Under the pieces are notes generated by a model, which ran no database searches, was not told the DNA's origin, and saw only the letters and a program-made list of their open reading frames with translations. A stretch of DNA of 64,000 nt from Escherichia coli (GTDB taxonomy: Bacteria > Pseudomonadota > Gammaproteobacteria > Enterobacterales > Enterobacteriaceae), in the NCBI RefSeq assembly GCF_003019035.1, contig NZ_CP027447.1, one strand, 5' to 3'. The translations under genes were made by a program, and so were the position numbers. Of the stretch, positions 2,614 to 58,611 are shown piece by piece (the stretch's first letter is position 1; each line of letters opens with the position of its first letter).

Positions 2614-3423
2614 TCACCCCTGCAATATTTTGTCCATCACGCGCCCCGGCAGCAGGCGCTTAAGCACCATTACCGCCCAGGTCACCAGCGTTACCGGATA
2701 GCGCATCTTCGGCTTCTCGCTAATAAAAGCATGGCGCACTTTGCCGACCACCGCTTCCGGTCCCAACGTAAAGCGGGCGGCGATGCCGGGATTTTCGACT
2801 GGTTTATCACTTTGCGTCTGGTTGACGTTGTCGGTGAAGCGAGTACGAATGGGACCAGGTTCGATCAGGCTAACTTTAATTCCGCTGTGACGTAGCTCCA
2901 TGCGCAGTGCGTCTGACCACGCCTCCAGCGCATATTTACTGGCCGCGTAAGCGCCACGACCCGGCGTGGAGATTAATCCCATCACCGATGAGGTCATCAC
3001 AATACGTCCTTCACCGTGCGGTAACATCGCGGGTAACAGGCGCATGGTGAGCTGGTGTGCGCCGAAAAAGTTGGCGGAAAACTGCTGTTCCATCTGCACA
3101 CGGCTGATGGTGGAAAGGGGGCCATACATGCCGAATCCGGCATTGTTAAAGATCCCATACAGACAATTATCGGTCAGGGCGATCACTTCGTCGGCTGCGC
3201 GATCAACACTTTCTGGTGAATCCAGATCGATCAACACGCCGGTAAATCCCATGCTGTTCATGCGCTCAACATCATCCGCTTTCCGGCAACCTGCCAGCAC
3301 ATGAAAACCCTGGCGTTTTAATTCGAGCGCGCTTTCCAGGCCAATTCCACTGGAACATCCGGTAATTAAGACCGATTTTTGCATAACTTTACCTGTCAGG
3401 ATCTCCGTTGCTTTATGAGTCAT
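2614..3423 (-). CDS. ybbO: Short-chain dehydrogenase/reductase YbbO
   Basis: 269-aa ORF with SDR glycine motif TGCSSGIG and YxxxK active-site pattern. Confidence 0.85.
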   Translation of the reverse strand: MTHKATEILTGKVMQKSVLITGCSSGIGLESALELKRQGFHVLAGCRKADDVERMNSMGFTGVLIDLDSPESVDRAADEVIALTDNCLYGIFNNAGFGMYGPLSTISRVQMEQQFSANFFGAHQLTMRLLPAMLPHGEGRIVMTSSVMGLISTPGRGAYAASKYALEAWSDALRMELRHSGIKVSLIEPGPIRTRFTDNVNQTQSDKPVENPGIAARFTLGPEAVVGKVRHAFISEKPKMRYPVTLVTWAVMVLKRLLPGRVMDKILQG

Positions 3424-4039
3424 GATTTACTAAAGGCTGCAACTGCTTCGCCATCCAGTCGGCAATAAACGGCTGGGCGTCGCGGTTGGGATGAATACCG
3501 TCATCCTGCATCCATTGTGGTTTGAGGTAGACCTCTTCCATAAAAAAGGGCAGCAGCGGAACATCAAACTCTTTGGCGAGTTTGGGGTAAATGGCGCTAA
3601 AGGCTTCATTATAACGGCGACCATAGTTTGCAGGCAGACGTATTTGCATTAACAATGGTTCAGCGTTGGCGGCTTTGACATCCTGCAAAATCTGGCGCAG
3701 CGTTTGCTCGGTTTGTTGTGGCTGAAAACCACGCAAACCGTCATTGCCGCCCAGTTCAACCAGCACCCAACGCGGCTGATGCTGTTTCAGCAGAGCCGGA
3801 AGGCGCGCCAGCCCTTGTTGCGAGGTGTCGCCGCTGATGCTGGCATTGACTACCGACGTTTTACTCTGCCACTTATCATTCAACAAGGCAGGCCAGGCCG
3901 CGCTGGCAGACATTCGATACCCGGCGCTCAGGCTATCACCCAGAATCAATAACGTGTCCGCTGCGGCGGCACGGAAGGTTAACAGGACCAGGAACAGGAA
4001 GGGCAAATGCCAGCGGAAAACATTGTTGAAGTTCATCAT
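3413..4039 (-). CDS. tesA: Periplasmic thioesterase I / lysophospholipase L1 TesA (SGNH hydrolase)
   Basis: ORF track 3413..4069; GDSLSAG catalytic motif; start trimmed to MMNFNN giving 208 aa. Confidence 0.85.
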   Translation of the reverse strand: MMNFNNVFRWHLPFLFLVLLTFRAAAADTLLILGDSLSAGYRMSASAAWPALLNDKWQSKTSVVNASISGDTSQQGLARLPALLKQHQPRWVLVELGGNDGLRGFQPQQTEQTLRQILQDVKAANAEPLLMQIRLPANYGRRYNEAFSAIYPKLAKEFDVPLLPFFMEEVYLKPQWMQDDGIHPNRDAQPFIADWMAKQLQPLVNHDS

Positions 4040-4693
4040 CTTAAGAAGTCCGTCGGTCAGGGGGAGCATGAACTCTCCATCCTCACCGGAGTTGAGCTGG
4101 TTGTCAAACGTGGCGAGACCATCGCACTGGTGGGCGAGTCGGGATCGGGTAAGTCAACCTTGCTGGCGATCCTCGCCGGGCTGGATGACGGCAGCAGTGG
4201 CGAAGTGAGTCTGGTGGGACAACCGCTACATAATATGGACGAAGAAGCGCGGGCAAAGTTGCGCGCGAAGCACGTAGGCTTTGTTTTTCAGTCATTTATG
4301 TTAATTCCTACCCTTAACGCGCTGGAAAACGTCGAGCTTCCGGCGCTGCTGCGTGGTGAGAGTAGCGCAGAAAGTCGTAACGGGGCAAAAGCGTTGCTCG
4401 AACAGTTAGGACTGGGTAAACGTCTGGATCATCTTCCGGCACAGCTTTCCGGCGGCGAACAGCAACGAGTGGCGCTGGCGCGAGCTTTTAATGGTCGGCC
4501 TGATGTGCTGTTTGCCGACGAACCCACCGGCAATCTTGACCGCCAGACGGGCGATAAAATTGCCGACCTGCTGTTTTCCCTCAACCGTGAACATGGCACC
4601 ACGTTGATTATGGTGACCCACGACCTGCAACTGGCGGCACGCTGCGACCGCTGCTTACGGCTGGTGAACGGGCAGTTGCAGGAGGAAGCATGA
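4007..4693 (+). CDS. ybbA: ABC transporter ATP-binding protein YbbA
   Basis: 228-aa ORF with Walker A GESGSGKST and LSGGEQQR signature; stop overlaps ybbP start. Confidence 0.9.
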   Translation: MPAENIVEVHHLKKSVGQGEHELSILTGVELVVKRGETIALVGESGSGKSTLLAILAGLDDGSSGEVSLVGQPLHNMDEEARAKLRAKHVGFVFQSFMLIPTLNALENVELPALLRGESSAESRNGAKALLEQLGLGKRLDHLPAQLSGGEQQRVALARAFNGRPDVLFADEPTGNLDRQTGDKIADLLFSLNREHGTTLIMVTHDLQLAARCDRCLRLVNGQLQEEA

Positions 4694-50799: not shown

Positions 50800-52110
50800 T
50801 ATAAAAGTTGCCGATTGCGTAGAATGTAGACAAAAGCGTGGTGTCAAGGAGGGGAGGGTAACGCAGGGAAAGATTACGAAAGCCCGCTCCCCGCAAGGAC
50901 TGACGCCAGATAGTTTCTGTCCATGGCTGCTTTTCGCATCTTACGTCTTAACCCTGCCTTGAATACCTTATCATTCGTCAAAATATTAATAGCGATGTGC
51001 CGTATCCCTGAAAATAATTCTGCTGCATTTCCTCTTCTTATTTTGCAGTCGTCTTCATTCATTACCACGTCCAGACGCCAGTGCAGCTTATTCTCCACGT
51101 GCCAGTGGTTTCGGATTGCTGTGGCGAACTTCTCTGCGGTTAAATCAGCAGAACTGATATAATATCTGACCGTCATTTCGGGCTCTTTCTTTTGTTCTGC
51201 TATTATTGACCGAAAGGAGACTGCCACGCATAATTTCTTCAGACCTTTCCATTCAAACGTGAAATCAATAAGTTCATCAGGGACATCGCAAACAATGTGA
51301 AGACGGATTTCTTCTCTGCCGTGACTCTTTTCACTCATTGCGTAACTGTCATGCTCTGGATTATTTAATTCTTTCAGCGGAAATTTTTCCTCGAAGGCTT
51401 TATTTAGCCGCCCCTGGTTTCCTTTTACAGCGAATAAATAATCACCTCCCTGTTTTTGTATCTTCTCTGCAATATCTTTCTGGCAACCCATCGCATCAGT
51501 TGTGATGATTTTTCCTTTAATATCCAGCATGTTAAGAAGTTCTTGGATAGCTGTAATCTCATTGGATTTCTCATCCGTCCTGATCTGTCCGATGACCAGA
51601 CTATGCATTGTTGAGAACGCACTAATGACATGAATCGCTCCCTTGCGGCGACTCTTGTCATAAGAGTGCCGGAGCGTTTTTCCATCAATTGCAATGACGC
51701 CTTTATCATCTGAAGAATGGCAGTCACGCATCCAGTTAATAAAGCACTCGTGAAATTTTGCAGGACTGATACAGGATACAACTCTGGCAATGGTATCGTG
51801 AACAGGAATACCATTTTCAAAATCACCATATTGCTTCAAAAAATCGAGATGTGTTTCCCCAAAATCCTCTATATCTTCCCAGCCTTCTGCACCAGAAATA
51901 ACGGCACAAATAGTCAACAGTAGAATATCCGACAATTTATGTTCCACTTTCCAGGCTTGTCTGTACTCGGGAATAACAGAAATATGTTCTATCAATTTTT
52001 TAAGTACCATTTTGTTCTCCTTAATTATGTAAGGAGTATTTGATCATGTATAAGCAATAAAAAACAGCTTCAGGTAATGAGGAATATCTCAATTTTTAAA
52101 CATAAAATGC
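50800..52110 (-). mobile_element. ISAs1-family insertion sequence (H-repeat element); ends approximate
   Basis: Single 378-aa transposase ORF in a unit of about 1.3 kb wedged between the nfrB promoter region and an Rhs fragment; inverted repeats not resolved by eye. Confidence 0.4.
50874..52010 (-). CDS. ISAs1-family transposase (H-repeat-associated protein)
   Basis: 378-aa [55 protein letters not shown], typical of H-rpt/ISAs1 transposases; SD AAGGAG. Confidence 0.85.
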
Positions 52111-52117
52111 GAATTAT

Positions 52118-52834
52118 TTAGTACAAAAAAGCAGCGTTACGTGATCTTTCCCTGTGTAATCCCCCAGCTAAATCATGAACTTTTTGAGCCATTTTACTTA
52201 ATTCAGGGCAGGCTCCTAAACCTAATGGATCTGTGAAGCAACACGGATTCAGCACATAACCATAAGTGTTTAGTCCACCCAATACACCCAGGGGGTCACT
52301 CACCAGATACATCCCGGTCTCCGGCTCGTAGTACCGGAACCGGTTATAGCACAGCCCTGACTCCGCATCCCGCCACTGCCCCGCATACAGCAGACCGGGG
52401 TCCGCTTCTGCGTCTCGCTCCCCGCGCGGGTCCGGGTAGTCCCTGTCTGCGCTGACGCTGAGTGCCAGCCCCCACAGGCTGGTCTGCTCCGCACGCCACA
52501 CCACGTTACCCTGACTGTTAAAGAGCATCACCGGGCGGCCTGTCAGGTCGCTTACCGCATGGCTGGTCCGCGTCACCCACTGCGGGGCCACGGACGGGTG
52601 CGGCTGCCGTACCCGGCTGAACTGCTGGCTTATCAGCTCAAAGCCGTTAAACACCAGGTACCGCACACTGTACAGTTTATCATCGCGGTATTCCCGGATT
52701 TCCGCAATAGTGTCGCCGTCCCACAGATATGTGATGCGGAGGGCTTTTTGTTTGCAGCGTTTCTCTGTCCGTCTGCCACTGGCGTCGTGGCAGTATTCCC
52801 ACTGCTCACCCCGGGCGCTGCGGTAGCCGATCAC
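52118..52834 (-). pseudogene. Orphan Rhs core-extension/C-terminal fragment, truncated
   Basis: GTG start without RBS; near-identical to residues about 1245-1450 of the upstream full Rhs through DPLGL, then only about 30 divergent residues before reading into IS-adjacent sequence. Confidence 0.6.
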
Positions 52835-52863
52835 GGCTGTCGTGGCGGAACTTTATCTCTTTT

Positions 52864-53253
52864 TTATTTAATCCAGTAAGCTAATCTCTCACCAATCTTC
52901 AAATTTTCTCTTTTGTAATAAAATACAGTATCAAAGTTAATGGATATTTTTTTCGCAATAACTTTGAATTTCAATTCAAATTCCGAATAAAACTCTAATA
53001 CTAACATTTCACGAGCATTGTCAGTGCAACTTGATAGCTTAATAAACTCCTCATTAAGATCGCATGACCAGTCCATAACACCGCTAATATAGCATGGCGT
53101 GTCTATTATTATTTCCAGTGTGTGATAGTAAGAAAGGTCATCACTCCCGGAAATAATCAAGCGATTATGTTCATAAAGAAAAACTGAAAAATCCAACCAA
53201 CTTTCTTTCCAATTATGGTGCTTTATATCATTAATTATGTTTTGCTCACTCAT
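52864..53253 (-). CDS. Putative immunity protein for the Rhs C-terminal toxin
   Basis: 129-aa AT-rich ORF whose start overlaps the rhs stop (ATGA), the canonical toxin-immunity arrangement. Confidence 0.6.
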   Translation of the reverse strand: MSEQNIINDIKHHNWKESWLDFSVFLYEHNRLIISGSDDLSYYHTLEIIIDTPCYISGVMDWSCDLNEEFIKLSSCTDNAREMLVLEFYSEFELKFKVIAKKISINFDTVFYYKRENLKIGERLAYWIK

Positions 53254-56200
53254 GGAATAGTTCCTGTAGGCAATGGTATATGAGTATCATTTGCAGCTCC
53301 TGGATTATAATTCGGACTTTTAGTTTTCAAATCAGATGTATGATGCCAACTGCCATCAGGAGAACCATACTCCCAACCATAGCCTTGATTAGTCGCAGGA
53401 TTTGTTCCACTTTGGCTTCTACCAATCCTATATATGGGGCCATTGGCAGAATTACTCCCTGCTGGAGCAGTAGGGTTTACATCATGAGCCCTTACTTCAT
53501 ATTTATAATTTCCGACGGTGAATTTTTCTTTAAATTTTATAGGGTAGTTATGCCCAGACAAGCCTTGCCGATGTAAAGCATAATTTAACACATCCTGCGG
53601 TGAGGTATTTTTAATTGCTTGATGCGCTTGTGCTGCTGTCATACCTTGAGAACGATTGTATTTATACCAATCATACATCACAGGACATATAGCTAATCCC
53701 AAAGGATCAACATACCCCAGCGGATTAGGCACATACCGGTAAGTCTGCTCACCCCCCAGCAACCCCAGTGGATCACTCACCAGGTACATCCCGGTTTCCG
53801 GCTCGTAATACCGGAACCGGTTATAGCACAGCCCCGATTCCGCATCCTGCCACTGCCCCGCATACAGCAGGCCGGGGTCGGCTTCCGGGTCCAGCTCCCC
53901 GCGCGGGTCCGGGTAGCCGGTGTCTGCGGGCAGGCTGAGTGCCAGCCCCCACAGGCTGGTCTGCCCCGGTCGCCAGACGGTTTTACCTTCACTGTTAAAG
54001 AGCACCAGCGGACGGCCCGTCAGGTCGCTCACCGCATGATTCGTTCGCGTCACCCACTGCGGGGCCACGGACGGATGCGGCTGCCGTACCCGGCTGAACT
54101 GCTGACTCAGCAGCTCAAAGCCGTTAAACACCAGGTGCCGTACGCTGTACAGTTTATCATCCCGGTATTCCCGCATTTCCGCAATACTGTCGCCGTCCCA
54201 CAGATACGTAAAACGGATTTTCTTCCGGTCGCAGCGTTTTTCCGTCCGCCTGCCGCTGGCGTCGTGGCGGTATTCCCACTGCTCACCCTGTGCGCTGCAA
54301 TACCCGGTCAGCTGGTCCCGGCTGTCCCACCGGAACCGCTCTGTTTCCGGGCGGTAGCCGTCACGGTGTCTGGTGCGGCTGACCATCCGGCCTGCGGCGT
54401 CATAGCTGTAGTCTGTGTTTCCGGTCTGTTTCAGCCGGTGGCCGCGCTGATACATGTCAGTATCCACGCTTATCCGGTGCCTGCCCGCCGACTGCGCCTT
54501 CAGGTAGCCACAACTGTCATAGCCATAGGACTCATCGCCTTCGCCATAGCCCAGCCCGGTGCCTGAGGCTGTCACCGCCGTGACCTGGCCGTTCCGGTCC
54601 AGCCGGTACTCCCGCCGTGTTTCCCGTCCGTAGTCTTCCCGGCTGGTGACAGCCGACATATTGCCCGCGCTGTCGTAACGGTACTCCCGCACCAGTGAGG
54701 GGAGCAGTCCGCCCCATGTGGCTTCCGCCGGGAAAAGTCCGGCGCGCTGGCTGGTAAGCTGACCGGCTGCATTCCAGCCCTGCTCACAGGCAAAACCCCG
54801 GTTACTGTGCCGGAGCACTTCACGTCCTGCCTCATCACGGCTGAACGTCAGCGTCTCATCCCCCGGCAGGATAACCTCCGTCAGTTCTCCGGCGGCGTTG
54901 TAGCGGTAGGTGGTTTTCAGCAGGGATTCACCGGGGTGTCTGTCGCGTTCATCTTCCGGTGGCAGGATACAGCGGATGACGGTGTGTTCATCGGGGTGGT
55001 GGTATTCAATGGCCCGTCGGCCCTGAGTGGTGACATTCACCCGCCCGCGTTCGTCATAGCCGGTGCGCTGTGATGTACCGTCCGGGCTGAAGATACCCGT
55101 CAGCCTGCCGGATTTGTCATAGGCATACTGCGTTTTGCCTTCCGGCGAGATGACTTCTGCCAGGCGGCCTGCGGCGTCCCGGCTGTAGAGGATAGTTTCC
55201 TCCAGGCCGTTAACCCTGGCGGTACAAAGGCCATCGGCGTCATAGCGGTAACGCCAGACCACGCCGCCCCAGTCACGCTCTTCCGTCACCCGTCCACAGT
55301 TGTCCAGAATATAACGGTATGACTCGCCCTGCGGATTGATGACTTCTGTCAGTTGCAGCGTGTCTTTATCGTAGCGGTACTGCCAGCGGTGGCCTTCACC
55401 GTCCGTTCGCGCCACCGGCAAATCGAACGGGCCGTATTCCATCGTCCAGACAACGCCGTTGCCGTCCGTCCAGGCCAGCAGGTTGCCGTGGCGGTCATAG
55501 CGAAATCCTTCCGCGCCGGTGCCAGTGCGTTCAAGGCCGCTCAGTTTATGGTGCTGCTGCCACCGTAACCGCACTGACTGACCGCCGGGGCCGCGCATCT
55601 TCACCGGCAGGTCGTGACCGCTGTATTCGGTGTGGTGTTCACGGCCCATCACGTCGGTGAGTGTTTCCGGCCGGTTGTGGTGGTCGTACTCTATGCCCAG
55701 ACGCCGTTCATCCTGGCGGAATATCCCCGACAGCAGCCCCTGCGGCGTGTACGCCAGCCGGGTCTCTTCGCCCTGTGGCGACACCAGACTTACCGGCAGG
55801 CCGCGTTCATCACACTGCTGCGTCCACATCTGCCCGGCAGGGTCGGTGATGTTGCTGAGCAGGCCGCGCTCATCATAGCAGTACTGCCACTCCGCACCGT
55901 CTGCCGCCGTGTAACGGCTTAACTGACCGTGTGCGGCGTTGTATTCAAACTTCTCCACCCGCCCGGCAGGGGAGTGGCGGGCCAGCAGGTGATGGAATTC
56001 ATCCCATTCATACATGGTGGTGCTGCCGTCCGGCGCTGCTTCCCGCAGAATATTGCCGTCAGGATCATAGTAATAACGGTGAATGCCCTTGCCGTCCGTC
56101 ACGGTGGTGCAGCCGTCACCATAGTCCAGCGTGGCGTTGTAATAGCCCTCCGCCCCGGTGACGGTCACGCACCGGCCCTGTGCATCGTAGGTGAAACGGC

Positions 56201-58103
56201 TCCACGTCTGGTCGTTATCGGACCAGCGGATGATCCGGTCCGCAGCGTCGTACTCATAAAACAGGTGGTAGTCCAGCCGCGCATCCGCTTCTGTCAGCCG
56301 CCCCCGCGCATCCTGTTCGTAGGTCGCCAGCATCTGTATGCCGTTATCCGTACGGTGAATGGCTTTCAGGTAGCCGCTGGCATGGTACGTCAGTTTAAGC
56401 CGGATCCCGTCGGTGTGACTGACACCCATGATGCGGTACTGGCTGTCGCGCTCAAACGTGATGCGGTTGCTGGCGGTGTCGCTCATCCCGCCCAGCATGT
56501 ACATCCGGTCTGCGGGGCTGTGTGCCAGACGGTCATCGCAGGTATCGTCAGTCACCGGGTGGCGCAGGCGCATTCCCGGAAAGGCGTCATAAAAGAAGCG
56601 GCTGCTCAGTGCATCACGGTCGAACAGCTCCAGGTAATCGTCGCGGCGGCGCAGAATGTACTGGGCGTGATACGGGTTAACCGCCGTATCACTGTCACCG
56701 TCGAAGGCAAATCTCAGCGTGGTTCCCTGGCTGATGATATCCACCCGGTTTCCCTGTTCACGCACCCAGGCGTATTCGCTCCAGGAGTCGCTCCAGCCCA
56801 CGCCCGTCAGACCATGCAGCGGCAGTACAGAACTGTGGAAACGGGTGAAGGAGAGGGGGAGTGTCTGGCCCAGCGTAAAGTCGGTACGTTCGTCGCAGTA
56901 TGCGCCGGTTACCGGATCGACAGGATCTGTTACCCATCTGATGACTTTATTGGCAATACTTTTTAACGACTTACCTGTTTTCCCCAGCAACGCGCCGAGC
57001 TTTGCCCCCAGCAGCTTCCCGCTTTTCCCCAGCAGGTTTCCCAGTTTGCCGAGTTTCGCCAGATTCCCCAGTTTTCCCAGCAGTCCCGCGGGCGGCAGAA
57101 GATAGCTGGCTATCGTTATTCCCCCCAGGATCATTCTCTGCCACGGCGGGAACTCCGGCTGGATATCCAGATAGGTCACCTGTTCACCGCCAATAAAGAC
57201 GTCCGGCGAACCTTCCACGATTGCCGCGCTGCACTCCAGTTTGTCCCCTTTGCGTGCGGCAGTCTGATTGTTGATAAAGACGTTGCTGCTGCCCTGGGCT
57301 ATCCTCGGTGGTTTGTTCTCCTTGTCGCAGAGCGCCGTGTCCTCACCGGCTTCCGGGAAATCCACGTCTTTTTTGATTTCGCCACGCCCGCCCACCATGG
57401 TGGCAAACTCCATTAATACCGGACCGGCGGGAAACAGAAGCGATGCGCCGGCGCTGACGCGATCCATAATACCGGCATTGCTGTCCGTCAGGGTGATAAC
57501 AGCGTTCCCCCAGGCCTTCGCCAGTGGTACTGCTTTTTCCGCTGCCGATTCAAGCAGGTCAGTGGCAATATCACCCCATGAGGGTTCCCCCTGTGGTGGA
57601 GAGGGTATTGCTTCAGTCAGGGGAGGAGGGGGAAGGGTGACGGCGGCCCTGGCAGCGGGCTTTCCGTTAATGTTTACATTTTTAGAACCAGTATTGATGG
57701 CCCCGTCCGTGTCACAAAAACTGTTTATCCATGATTCAAGCTGGTTCTGTTTCTCCTCCACATAATCACTCGCCTTATAGCTGGCATACATCAGCGCAGG
57801 CACCAGAACCAGCGCATAAGGGCCGGTGGCACAGGCGGCCATAATCAGGCAACCTTCTGCGATGGTCACTATCGCCCCCAGCACGGCCCCTGCCAGCGCC
57901 CCCAAAAAACTCTTGTGCTGAATTTCATCGCCCAGCCTGGCTGCGGGGGGGCCAGACTTTTTTGATGCCAACATCTGTGCAATGGCTTTGTCGTTGGCTG
58001 CCCGTTTCATCTGGCTGGCGACCATCGCCTGCTGTGACAGCATTCGCATTGCCAGCGTACCGCCTGCGGTCGCTCCCTGTGGCCCGCCTGGTCCTTCACT
58101 CAT
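53250..58103 (-). CDS. rhs: prePAAR/PAAR-domain Rhs (YD-repeat) T6SS effector with variable C-terminal toxin domain
   Basis: 1617 aa; N-terminal prePAAR motif AARLGDEIQH followed by TM helices, long YD-repeat shell, core end DPLGL, then about 150 aa of unrelated low-GC sequence. Confidence 0.9.
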   Translation of the reverse strand: MSEGPGGPQGATAGGTLAMRMLSQQAMVASQMKRAANDKAIAQMLASKKSGPPAARLGDEIQHKSFLGALAGAVLGAIVTIAEGCLIMAACATGPYALVLVPALMYASYKASDYVEEKQNQLESWINSFCDTDGAINTGSKNVNINGKPAARAAVTLPPPPLTEAIPSPPQGEPSWGDIATDLLESAAEKAVPLAKAWGNAVITLTDSNAGIMDRVSAGASLLFPAGPVLMEFATMVGGRGEIKKDVDFPEAGEDTALCDKENKPPRIAQGSSNVFINNQTAARKGDKLECSAAIVEGSPDVFIGGEQVTYLDIQPEFPPWQRMILGGITIASYLLPPAGLLGKLGNLAKLGKLGNLLGKSGKLLGAKLGALLGKTGKSLKSIANKVIRWVTDPVDPVTGAYCDERTDFTLGQTLPLSFTRFHSSVLPLHGLTGVGWSDSWSEYAWVREQGNRVDIISQGTTLRFAFDGDSDTAVNPYHAQYILRRRDDYLELFDRDALSSRFFYDAFPGMRLRHPVTDDTCDDRLAHSPADRMYMLGGMSDTASNRITFERDSQYRIMGVSHTDGIRLKLTYHASGYLKAIHRTDNGIQMLATYEQDARGRLTEADARLDYHLFYEYDAADRIIRWSDNDQTWSRFTYDAQGRCVTVTGAEGYYNATLDYGDGCTTVTDGKGIHRYYYDPDGNILREAAPDGSTTMYEWDEFHHLLARHSPAGRVEKFEYNAAHGQLSRYTAADGAEWQYCYDERGLLSNITDPAGQMWTQQCDERGLPVSLVSPQGEETRLAYTPQGLLSGIFRQDERRLGIEYDHHNRPETLTDVMGREHHTEYSGHDLPVKMRGPGGQSVRLRWQQHHKLSGLERTGTGAEGFRYDRHGNLLAWTDGNGVVWTMEYGPFDLPVARTDGEGHRWQYRYDKDTLQLTEVINPQGESYRYILDNCGRVTEERDWGGVVWRYRYDADGLCTARVNGLEETILYSRDAAGRLAEVISPEGKTQYAYDKSGRLTGIFSPDGTSQRTGYDERGRVNVTTQGRRAIEYHHPDEHTVIRCILPPEDERDRHPGESLLKTTYRYNAAGELTEVILPGDETLTFSRDEAGREVLRHSNRGFACEQGWNAAGQLTSQRAGLFPAEATWGGLLPSLVREYRYDSAGNMSAVTSREDYGRETRREYRLDRNGQVTAVTASGTGLGYGEGDESYGYDSCGYLKAQSAGRHRISVDTDMYQRGHRLKQTGNTDYSYDAAGRMVSRTRHRDGYRPETERFRWDSRDQLTGYCSAQGEQWEYRHDASGRRTEKRCDRKKIRFTYLWDGDSIAEMREYRDDKLYSVRHLVFNGFELLSQQFSRVRQPHPSVAPQWVTRTNHAVSDLTGRPLVLFNSEGKTVWRPGQTSLWGLALSLPADTGYPDPRGELDPEADPGLLYAGQWQDAESGLCYNRFRYYEPETGMYLVSDPLGLLGGEQTYRYVPNPLGYVDPLGLAICPVMYDWYKYNRSQGMTAAQAHQAIKNTSPQDVLNYALHRQGLSGHNYPIKFKEKFTVGNYKYEVRAHDVNPTAPAGSNSANGPIYRIGRSQSGTNPATNQGYGWEYGSPDGSWHHTSDLKTKSPNYNPGAANDTHIPLPTGTIP

Positions 58104-58122
58104 GTGTTATCCCTCGTTTATG

Positions 58123-58584
58123 TCAGCGCGGCTGGTCCTTTTGGATGTCATTCTCCGGTGGCAACGGGGTGAAGCTCTTTATCACCTCCAGCAGCATCGT
58201 CTTTTGACTGTTCTTCAGGGATAAGGAGGTGCTGAAAGTGAAGGTCAGCAGCGTATCTCCACGCCGCTGGAATACGGCTATCTGGCTAATCCGCCCCTGA
58301 TTCCCTTCATCTTCCGGACCGTTCCAGGAATAATCCAGCAGCCAGGCCGGGGCCTCTGCCAGAGTGATTTCCCGGCAGGCATGTTCGGTGTACCCATCAA
58401 GTTTGCCCTGGTACAGCGCCAGCGTTTCCTGGTACAGCTCTGGTGTCAGGGTTCCCTGTGGAACGGCTTCGCGGGTAATGACCAGGTTGATGCCACTGTT
58501 ATCTGTGGACACCAGGACCTGCATTGACTGATCCTGCCATTGAGACGGCAGTTGAATGTGGCCTTCATTAAAAGTGAACTGCAT
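58123..58584 (-). CDS. DUF1795-family effector-associated chaperone (EagR-like)
   Basis: 153-aa ORF between vgrG and rhs, the position held by Eag chaperones for prePAAR effectors. Confidence 0.75.
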   Translation of the reverse strand: MQFTFNEGHIQLPSQWQDQSMQVLVSTDNSGINLVITREAVPQGTLTPELYQETLALYQGKLDGYTEHACREITLAEAPAWLLDYSWNGPEDEGNQGRISQIAVFQRRGDTLLTFTFSTSLSLKNSQKTMLLEVIKSFTPLPPENDIQKDQPR

Positions 58585-58611
58585 AAAATACTCCCTGTTA
58601 ATCTGAGTGAA

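Follow-up and report, generated by a model that had tools for sequence, protein, structure and literature searches.

An Ntox30 toxin tip and its putative cognate immunity gene in a PAAR-Rhs effector island of Escherichia coli

Class I prePAAR Rhs effectors with an Eag chaperone, such as RhsA of P. protegens, Rhs1 of Salmonella and Tre23 of Photorhabdus (PMC7773334, PMC8765631, PMC8636562), are encoded in the gene order vgrG-eag-rhs-immunity. The prePAAR motif of these proteins has been defined (PMC7773334), and an autoproteolytic role has been assigned to their DPxG-X18-DPxG motif from published Rhs structures (PMC8636562, PMC8765631). In this paper, we describe a PAAR-Rhs effector encoded in a stretch of 64,000 nucleotides from Escherichia coli (NCBI RefSeq assembly GCF_003019035.1, contig NZ_CP027447.1), the whole of which is called the window, with emphasis on the C-terminal toxin tip of this effector, which we place in the Ntox30 family, and on the 129-residue open reading frame (ORF) that follows it.

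Ntox30 was named in 2012, when it was described as 'all-beta; RxH, R, THIP' and predicted to be a two-histidine metal-independent endo-RNase, with no immunity family given (Zhang et al. 2012, PMC3482391). The domain was reported on RHS, type VI secretion system (T6SS), type VII secretion system (T7SS) and TcdB/TcaC toxins of Actinobacteria, Bacteroidetes, Proteobacteria, Firmicutes and Spirochaetes (PMC3482391). A review of 2023 repeated the endo-RNase prediction and still listed Ntox30 among the domains needing empirical work (PMC9990079), and one paper counts it among the 'characterised' domains (PMC9635880). A further pair that bears on this locus is PT7-PIM7 of Bacillus cereus (PDB 8OWU; 10.1101/2021.10.19.465003), in which residues D37, H47 and H73 are needed for the toxicity of PT7, and PIM7 covers the catalytic pocket of PT7 with a negatively charged surface.

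The Ntox30 tip and its probable immunity family

The effector gene (53250..58103, minus strand, as are all window features below) encodes a protein of 1617 residues, comprising a prePAAR motif, a hydrophobic transmembrane region, a split PAAR domain, DUF6531, a YD-repeat shell, the Rhs core and the toxin tip. The core ends in ...PNPLGYVDPLGLA, and after DPLGLA there follows a tip of 146 residues running from ICPVMYDWYKYNRSQG to THIPLPTGTIP (53250..53690 with the stop codon, 53253-53690 without it), which agrees with the tip of about 150 residues noted in a preliminary description of the window. The same description had left the tip outside every recognised toxin family, and on this point it was mistaken, since the tip matches the Pfam family Ntox30, or 'Bacterial toxin 30' (PF15532; hmmscan i-Evalue 1.3e-11, score 45.1, model positions 29-103 of 103), contains all the signatures of the family, and has close relatives (52-85% identity) that NCBI names 'polymorphic toxin type 30 domain-containing protein'. 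The signatures are R67-A68-H69 in 'YEVRAHD' (RxH), R88/R91 (R) and T136-H137-I138-P139 in 'NDTHIPLP' (THIP); the codons of R67, H69, R88, R91 and H137 lie at 53490-53492, 53484-53486, 53427-53429, 53418-53420 and 53280-53282, respectively. A case for a tip of no recognised family could be built on the NCBIfam search, which gave no meaningful match for the tip or for the 129-residue ORF, on the generic RefSeq name of the full protein ('RHS repeat-associated core domain-containing protein'), and on the lack of any PDB match, whether the sequence search used single sequences or profiles of the toxin and immunity families; set against the PF15532 match, the complete motifs and the names of the relatives, such a case is scarcely credible.

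Profile searching of 1.84 billion representatives, clustered at 50% identity, retrieved 293 Ntox30 relatives at E<=1e-3 from at least three phyla, the carriers including Rhs/YD-repeat proteins of Firmicutes and Bacteroidota. In nearly all of the 150 relatives listed the domain occupies the extreme C-terminus, in proteins of 56-4885 residues. An alignment of 43 sequences, with relatives down to 30% identity, shows that Q42, R67, H69, R88, R91, G103, G105 and H137 are invariant and that K54, E65 and E107 are nearly so, and the conserved domain spans approximately residues 31-141 of the tip. The tip is basic, with an isoelectric point (pI) of 9.2; the median of the toxin family is 8.7. Judged by its sequence, then, the tip is an Ntox30 member borne on a standard class I prePAAR Rhs effector, and we consider it highly probable that the locus encodes a T6SS Rhs/Ntox30 toxin together with its cognate immunity.

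The 129-residue ORF (52864..53253) starts at the ATG of 'ccATGAgt', so that four bases (ATGA) are shared with the TGA stop of the Rhs gene. It has the hallmarks of an immunity gene, as which it had been read in the preliminary description, and yet it has no match in Pfam or NCBIfam, nor do fourteen diverse members of its family match Pfam; a word-indexed search with it retrieved 67 clusters, all from Enterobacterales and all labelled 'hypothetical'. The pairing with Ntox30 extends much further. Using a 7-sequence subset of the Ntox30 alignment as the query, we fetched 11 loci from three phyla (Citrobacter, Pectobacterium, Cohnella, Cytobacillus, three from Paenibacillus, Lysinibacillus, Anaerostipes, Fulvivirga and Owenweeksia), where the toxins are found on Rhs/YD-repeat proteins, some with a Hint domain, or as short orphans, and in 11 of 11 the next ORF, whose start lies only a few bases from the toxin stop codon, is homologous to that of E. 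coli. A hidden Markov model built from Enterobacterales immunity sequences only detected these ORFs with E values of 7.7e-69 to 3.5e-6, against 0.13 for the best unrelated downstream ORF. The E. coli protein is acidic (pI 5.0), as is its family (median pI 4.6-4.8), and the ORF is strictly co-inherited with the tip in all of the 120 E. coli genomes that carry them. Because of this conserved pairing, the ATGA coupling and the co-inheritance, the ORF is very likely the cognate immunity gene of the tip.

Other observations on the family are as follows. In E. coli and E. fergusonii there is a second allele group of immunity proteins, mostly of 140 residues and 53-56% identical, from which it follows that Escherichia also has a divergent second type of Ntox30 toxin, against which there would be no cross-protection. 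In the Lysinibacillus sphaericus locus (4157-4530) the immunity gene is split into two ORFs, and in two Paenibacillus loci the toxin frames are interrupted before the THIP motif with the immunity gene intact; such decayed Firmicute copies follow the usual pattern of immunity genes outliving toxins. As the family is absent from both Pfam and NCBIfam, its genes are labelled 'hypothetical' everywhere.

Predicted activity and a possible relation to PT7-PIM7

The AlphaFold2 model of the tip is confident (pLDDT 95.4), and consists of three N-terminal helices and a beta core with strands at residues 53-59, 62-69, 86-93, 106-109 and 115-117; one of the helices, residues 31-41, is kept across the Ntox30 family. 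No ADP-ribosyltransferase (ART), deaminase, NADase or peptidase fold is seen in the model, which matches no nuclease of established mechanism convincingly and does not adopt the BECR fold; Salmonella Rhs2, a BECR nuclease resembling CdiA-CT (5T86), was considered as a relative and dropped as unrelated to the tip. In the Foldseek check that had been proposed in the preliminary description, nothing in the PDB scored below E 0.2 for the toxin model. The top PDB match of the immunity model is PIM7 in 8OWU, so that a protein with the predicted fold of PIM7 is encoded directly downstream of the tip. The second-best match of the toxin model, and the only toxin structurally similar to it, is PT7, the partner of PIM7 in the same entry. 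The PT7 match of the toxin model alone would be noise; it gains weight because both partners of one crystal complex match the models of the toxin and of its immunity protein.

For a comparison at the sequence level, the PT7 sequence was rebuilt from the mutagenesis primers in the supplement of the preprint and from an X-padded PDB query. PT7 has 78 residues, contains TIRMRID37PPD and ends in SPDAH73IPYKM, and distant Ntox30 members read TVRLRIHGPD ... AANDTHIPWP. Aligning the distant Ntox30 subfamily with the PT7 family by hhalign gave 52 collinear columns at E 0.0032, with a probability of only 10%, in which R35, D37 and H73 of PT7 fall on R67, H69 and H137 of Ntox30, respectively; accordingly, H73 pairs with the invariant H137, D37 is a substitution relative to the invariant H69, and H47 has no secure Ntox30 counterpart. 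With the main Ntox30 alignment the probability was 1.2%, compared with 99.75% for the control in which the two Ntox30 alignments were set against each other. The immunity family against the PIM7 family gave 0.2%, with a 7-bit echo in the N-terminal 'W..LDFS' region. By sequence profile, therefore, the tip is not placed in the PT7 family, and the link serves as a lead only, for which the distant subfamily is suggestive.

Whether Ntox30 and its immunity family form one ancient toxin-immunity superfamily with PT7-PIM7 appears to us evenly balanced. If they do, 8OWU would be the only solved representative of the superfamily, the E. coli tip would represent, at full size, a nuclease fold that the PDB otherwise lacks, and the swap of catalytic positions, Arg/His in Ntox30 and Asp/His in PT7, would mean a change of chemistry or substrate within one fold. 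A separate observation concerns Carnobacterium gallinarum (JQLU01000005.1, 1-5237), in which an LXG-EndoU toxin gene is followed by a series of small genes, among them one for a stand-alone PT7 homologue and two that are PIM7-like (2750-3148 and 3387-3788); they have the appearance of an orphan toxin/immunity array belonging to a T7SS locus.

The reading that we favour overall, and regard as rather likely, is that of a T6SS-delivered Ntox30 nuclease with an immunity protein that blocks its active site. The basic fragment of about 146 residues would act as a nuclease in the cytoplasm of the target cell, with a predicted active site made up of R67-x-H69, R88, R91 and H137 of the THIP motif, together with the near-invariant K54, E65 and E107. 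Our best guess for its chemistry, following the family prediction of Zhang et al., is metal-independent cleavage of RNA through two-histidine acid-base catalysis. The acidic 129-residue protein, which is predicted to have the PIM7 fold, may bind the toxin and block its cationic active site as PIM7 does in the crystal structure with PT7; by analogy, it should cover the cationic Ntox30 site.

That the tip is a nuclease of some kind we hold to be probable, and the published leads, i.e. the motif prediction for Ntox30 and the weakly controlled assay of PT7, agree in this and contradict each other on the substrate, the former pointing to RNA and the latter to DNA. An RNase of the metal-independent type, an identification that we make tentatively and with slightly less than even confidence, is nevertheless favoured over a metal-dependent DNase and over a non-nuclease target, because Ntox30 keeps invariant Arg and His residues and has no obvious invariant acidic metal-binding cluster. 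Several points weigh against this view of the locus. PT7 has been reported as a Mg-dependent DNase with no tRNase activity (10.1101/2021.10.19.465003). The literature search found no experiment on any Ntox30 member; the reading in the preliminary description was to be refuted by a confident placement of the tip in a characterised family, and this applies by half, as the family is named and has a predicted nuclease activity, but no direct biochemical assay and no solved structure of the family was found. The immunity function is read from gene context and from the modelled fold, and the firing of an orphan vgrG island, known here from its genes alone, is assumed.

If the tip were instead a metal-dependent DNase like PT7, with the same delivery and immunity and with Ntox30 and PT7 in one superfamily, the chromosome of the target would be degraded. 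The paired 8OWU matches argue for this, as do the collinear motifs T-[VI]-R-[LM]-R-I-[HD]-x-P-D (TVRLRIHGPD in Ntox30, TIRMRIDPPD in PT7) and D-[TA]-H-I-P near the C-terminus of both, and the hhalign result with the distant subfamily, although the sequence-profile support for homology is below the usual thresholds. In the assays themselves, PT7 mutant proteins with Mg2+ degraded plasmid and genomic DNA, EDTA blocked the reaction, tRNA was not cut, and the DAPI signal was lost in some cells (10.1101/2021.10.19.465003). However, these were 'inactive' point mutants, PIM7 gave no inhibition in vitro, and tRNA was the only RNA tried (10.1101/2021.10.19.465003); because of the use of point mutants and the lack of inhibition, the DNase may have been a contaminating nuclease, and nucleoid compaction is also consistent with a block of translation. 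Moreover, Ntox30 has Arg (R88, possibly R91) where PT7 has the conserved Asp and His residues D46, H47 and H49. Taken together, we consider the DNase activity unlikely in the tip. Even less likely is an enzyme or binder that acts elsewhere than on nucleic acids, for example on a translation factor, on a nucleotide cofactor or on the cell envelope; the RNase and DNase calls would then both be misleading. Such a target would fit a fold that convincingly matches no nuclease of known mechanism, and published assignments that consist of a motif prediction and an assay on a distant relative; in addition, a nuclease activity had once been guessed for other Rhs tips that act on or through EF-Tu (10.64898/2026.05.10.723254). 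On the other hand, enzymes acting on nucleic acids usually show the pattern seen here, with an invariant His/Arg/Lys cluster in a basic toxin whose immunity protein is acidic, the folds absent from the model include those of ARTs, deaminases, NADases and peptidases, and no signal peptide or periplasmic feature was seen in the sequence of the immunity protein.

The exchangeable cassette and its island

The sharp fall in GC content from the core into the tip and the ORF, pointed out in the preliminary description, is borne out by our measurements, which gave 0.605 for the Rhs core (53691-58103), 0.399 for the tip, 0.313 for the ORF and 0.516 for the whole window, the step being visible in a sliding profile as well. 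The tip and the ORF together (827 bp) occur in 120 of 5426 complete E. coli genomes (~2%), always together, in single copy and at >=99% identity, many of these being clinical isolates, ST648 strains among them. When a 1.2-kb query was used, about 2200 further genomes matched in the core alone, and in these the similarity stops at window positions 53683-53722, i.e. at the DPLGL boundary, beyond which the same core bears other tips, whose annotation is 'zincin-like metallopeptidase toxin' or 'restriction endonuclease fold toxin'. The GC step, the joint presence in 120 genomes and the allelic breakpoint all argue that the low-GC tip and immunity gene are, as far as genome comparison can tell, an exchangeable cassette joining the core at this boundary and not a chance feature, in line with the horizontal exchange that had been proposed; it would have been gained as one unit through recombination at the conserved core end.

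Downstream of the immunity gene lies an orphan Rhs core fragment (52118..52834; Rhs_assc_core E=1e-19), which RefSeq annotates as incomplete at both ends. Along 535 bp, its DNA and the 3' end of the main core are 87% identical, and its alternative tip has only 31 residues after DPLGLG (ACPELSKMAQKVHDLAGGLHRERSRNAAFLY, then a stop codon), followed by an AT-rich spacer and an ISAs1-family (H-repeat) transposase gene (50874..52010; NCBIfam NF033564 E=1.4e-124), which marks the end of the rhs island and adjoins nfrB. The fragment could be a recombination partner for tip switching, and the insertion sequence has probably truncated a second toxin/immunity cassette here.

Upstream of rhs, an Eag-type chaperone gene of the DcrB/DUF1795 family (58123..58584, 153 residues; Pfam DcrB PF08786 E=1.7e-27) follows directly, and in identical loci it is named 'DcrB-related protein' by RefSeq. 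Next comes vgrG (58612..60513, 633 residues; NCBIfam TIGR03361 E=8.6e-188 and RefSeq annotation), which encodes the T6SS spike protein carrying the PAAR-Rhs effector. The gene order along the minus strand is cusS, vgrG, the Eag-type gene, the PAAR-Rhs gene, the 129-residue ORF, the orphan Rhs core, the ISAs1 transposase gene, nfrB and nfrA, so the whole vgrG-eag-rhs-immunity-orphan-ISAs1 island (50874-60513) is placed between nfrB and cusS. We take nfrB and cusS to be adjacent in the K-12 map, in which case the island would be an insertion at that site. Many complete E. coli chromosomes, including those of strains ST648, ECONIH1 and MS6198, carry the DNA of the locus at 100% identity. In the otherwise identical record of strain ST648 (NZ_CP008697.1, 20551-25405), the same Rhs gene is a frameshifted pseudogene of 4855 bp, while the copy in the window is intact at 4854 bp; the frameshift is due to variation between strains or to faulty sequencing behind that record.

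Its gene content makes this a T6SS effector island of the classical 'vgrG - eag - PAAR-rhs - immunity' type. The Rhs protein matches the NCBIfam models for the YD repeat (TIGR01643, E=2.8e-68), Rhs_assc_core (TIGR03696, E=2.4e-18) and the T6SS PAAR domain (E=4.7e-10), and the Pfam families prePAAR_I (PF25799, E=5.2e-5), PAAR_motif (PF05488, E=4.6e-9) and DUF6531 (E=8.1e-13). Both of its diagnostic motifs are intact. The class I prePAAR motif AARLGDEIQH (57915..57944, Rhs residues 54-63), located with the regular expression AARxxDxxxH and belonging to Pfam PF25799, is followed by the hydrophobic stretch FLGALAGAVLGAIVTIAEGCLIMAACATGPYALVLVPALMY, and the C-terminal autoproteolysis motif DPxG-X18-DPxG (53697..53774, Rhs residues 1444-1469, DPLGLLGGEQTYRYVPNPLGYVDPLG), located in the same way on the translated ORF, marks the junction of core and tip. 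The steps of delivery, for which these features are present here, are taken by analogy from homologous systems: the Eag/DcrB chaperone would shield the prePAAR motif and the transmembrane N-terminus, the PAAR domain would seat the effector on VgrG, the YD-repeat shell would encase the tip, and the aspartyl autoprotease at DPxG-X18-DPxG would free the tip by a cut just after DPLGL.

Comparison with described systems

As a T6SS Rhs effector with a swappable tip, the locus is a routine member of a well-understood class. What is new here is the conserved immunity family paired with Ntox30, which is unnamed in Pfam and NCBIfam. Ntox30 is widespread, and the confident model of the tip matches no known nuclease fold; the PT7-PIM7 structure is its likely structural template, pointing to H69, R88 and H137, and the comparison with PT7 also lays bare the conflict between the RNase prediction and the DNase report.

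With respect to the Ntox30 family as published, the tip shares the HMM match, the RxH, R and THIP motifs and the C-terminal place in an RHS/T6SS polymorphic toxin, and the taxonomic spread found here (gamma-proteobacteria, Firmicutes and Bacteroidota) agrees with the published one. Alignment with the Pfam model starts only at model position 29 (residue 56 of the tip), whereas in our own profile the conserved domain begins earlier, with the helix P31...R41-Q42. The family has been described as all-beta, which is not strictly so in the modelled tip, with its three helices before the beta core, and the table of 2012 gives no immunity family, whereas a conserved one is found here.

Like the tip pair, PT7-PIM7 consists of a C-terminal polymorphic toxin domain followed directly by an acidic immunity gene, and PT7 and Ntox30 share the motifs R-I-[HD]-P-x-D and, at the C-terminus, D-[TA]-H-I-P. 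In contrast, PT7 is half the size (78 residues), without the N-terminal helices and two loops of Ntox30, it has conserved H24, D46, H47 and H49 where Ntox30 has K54 and Arg or non-conserved positions, and it rides on LXG/T7SS proteins.

Among E. coli systems, the catalogue of Rhs-CT1 to CT10 (Ma et al. 2017), as far as it is summarised in two reviews (PMC6730261, PMC6099711), has the same vgrG-eagR/DUF1795-PAAR-rhs-CT module. The alleles of the present core found in other genomes bear metallopeptidase (CT1-like) and restriction endonuclease fold (CT3-like) tips. In the reviews, CT5-CT8 are described as putative RNases, and only CT1, CT3 and CT5 are said to have been tested by experiment; the paper that counts Ntox30 among the 'characterised' domains (PMC9635880) cites this same catalogue. 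Literature searches on the protein accession and on Rhs-CT6, 7, 8 and 10 added nothing to this. Finally, RhsA, Rhs1 and Tre23 have, in addition to the gene order, the same prePAAR motif AARxxDxxxH with a transmembrane region, PAAR domain, YD-repeat shell and DPxG-X18-DPxG autocleavage motif as the E. coli effector, and they differ from it only in the toxin tip and the immunity protein, where they carry ART, nuclease or other domains.

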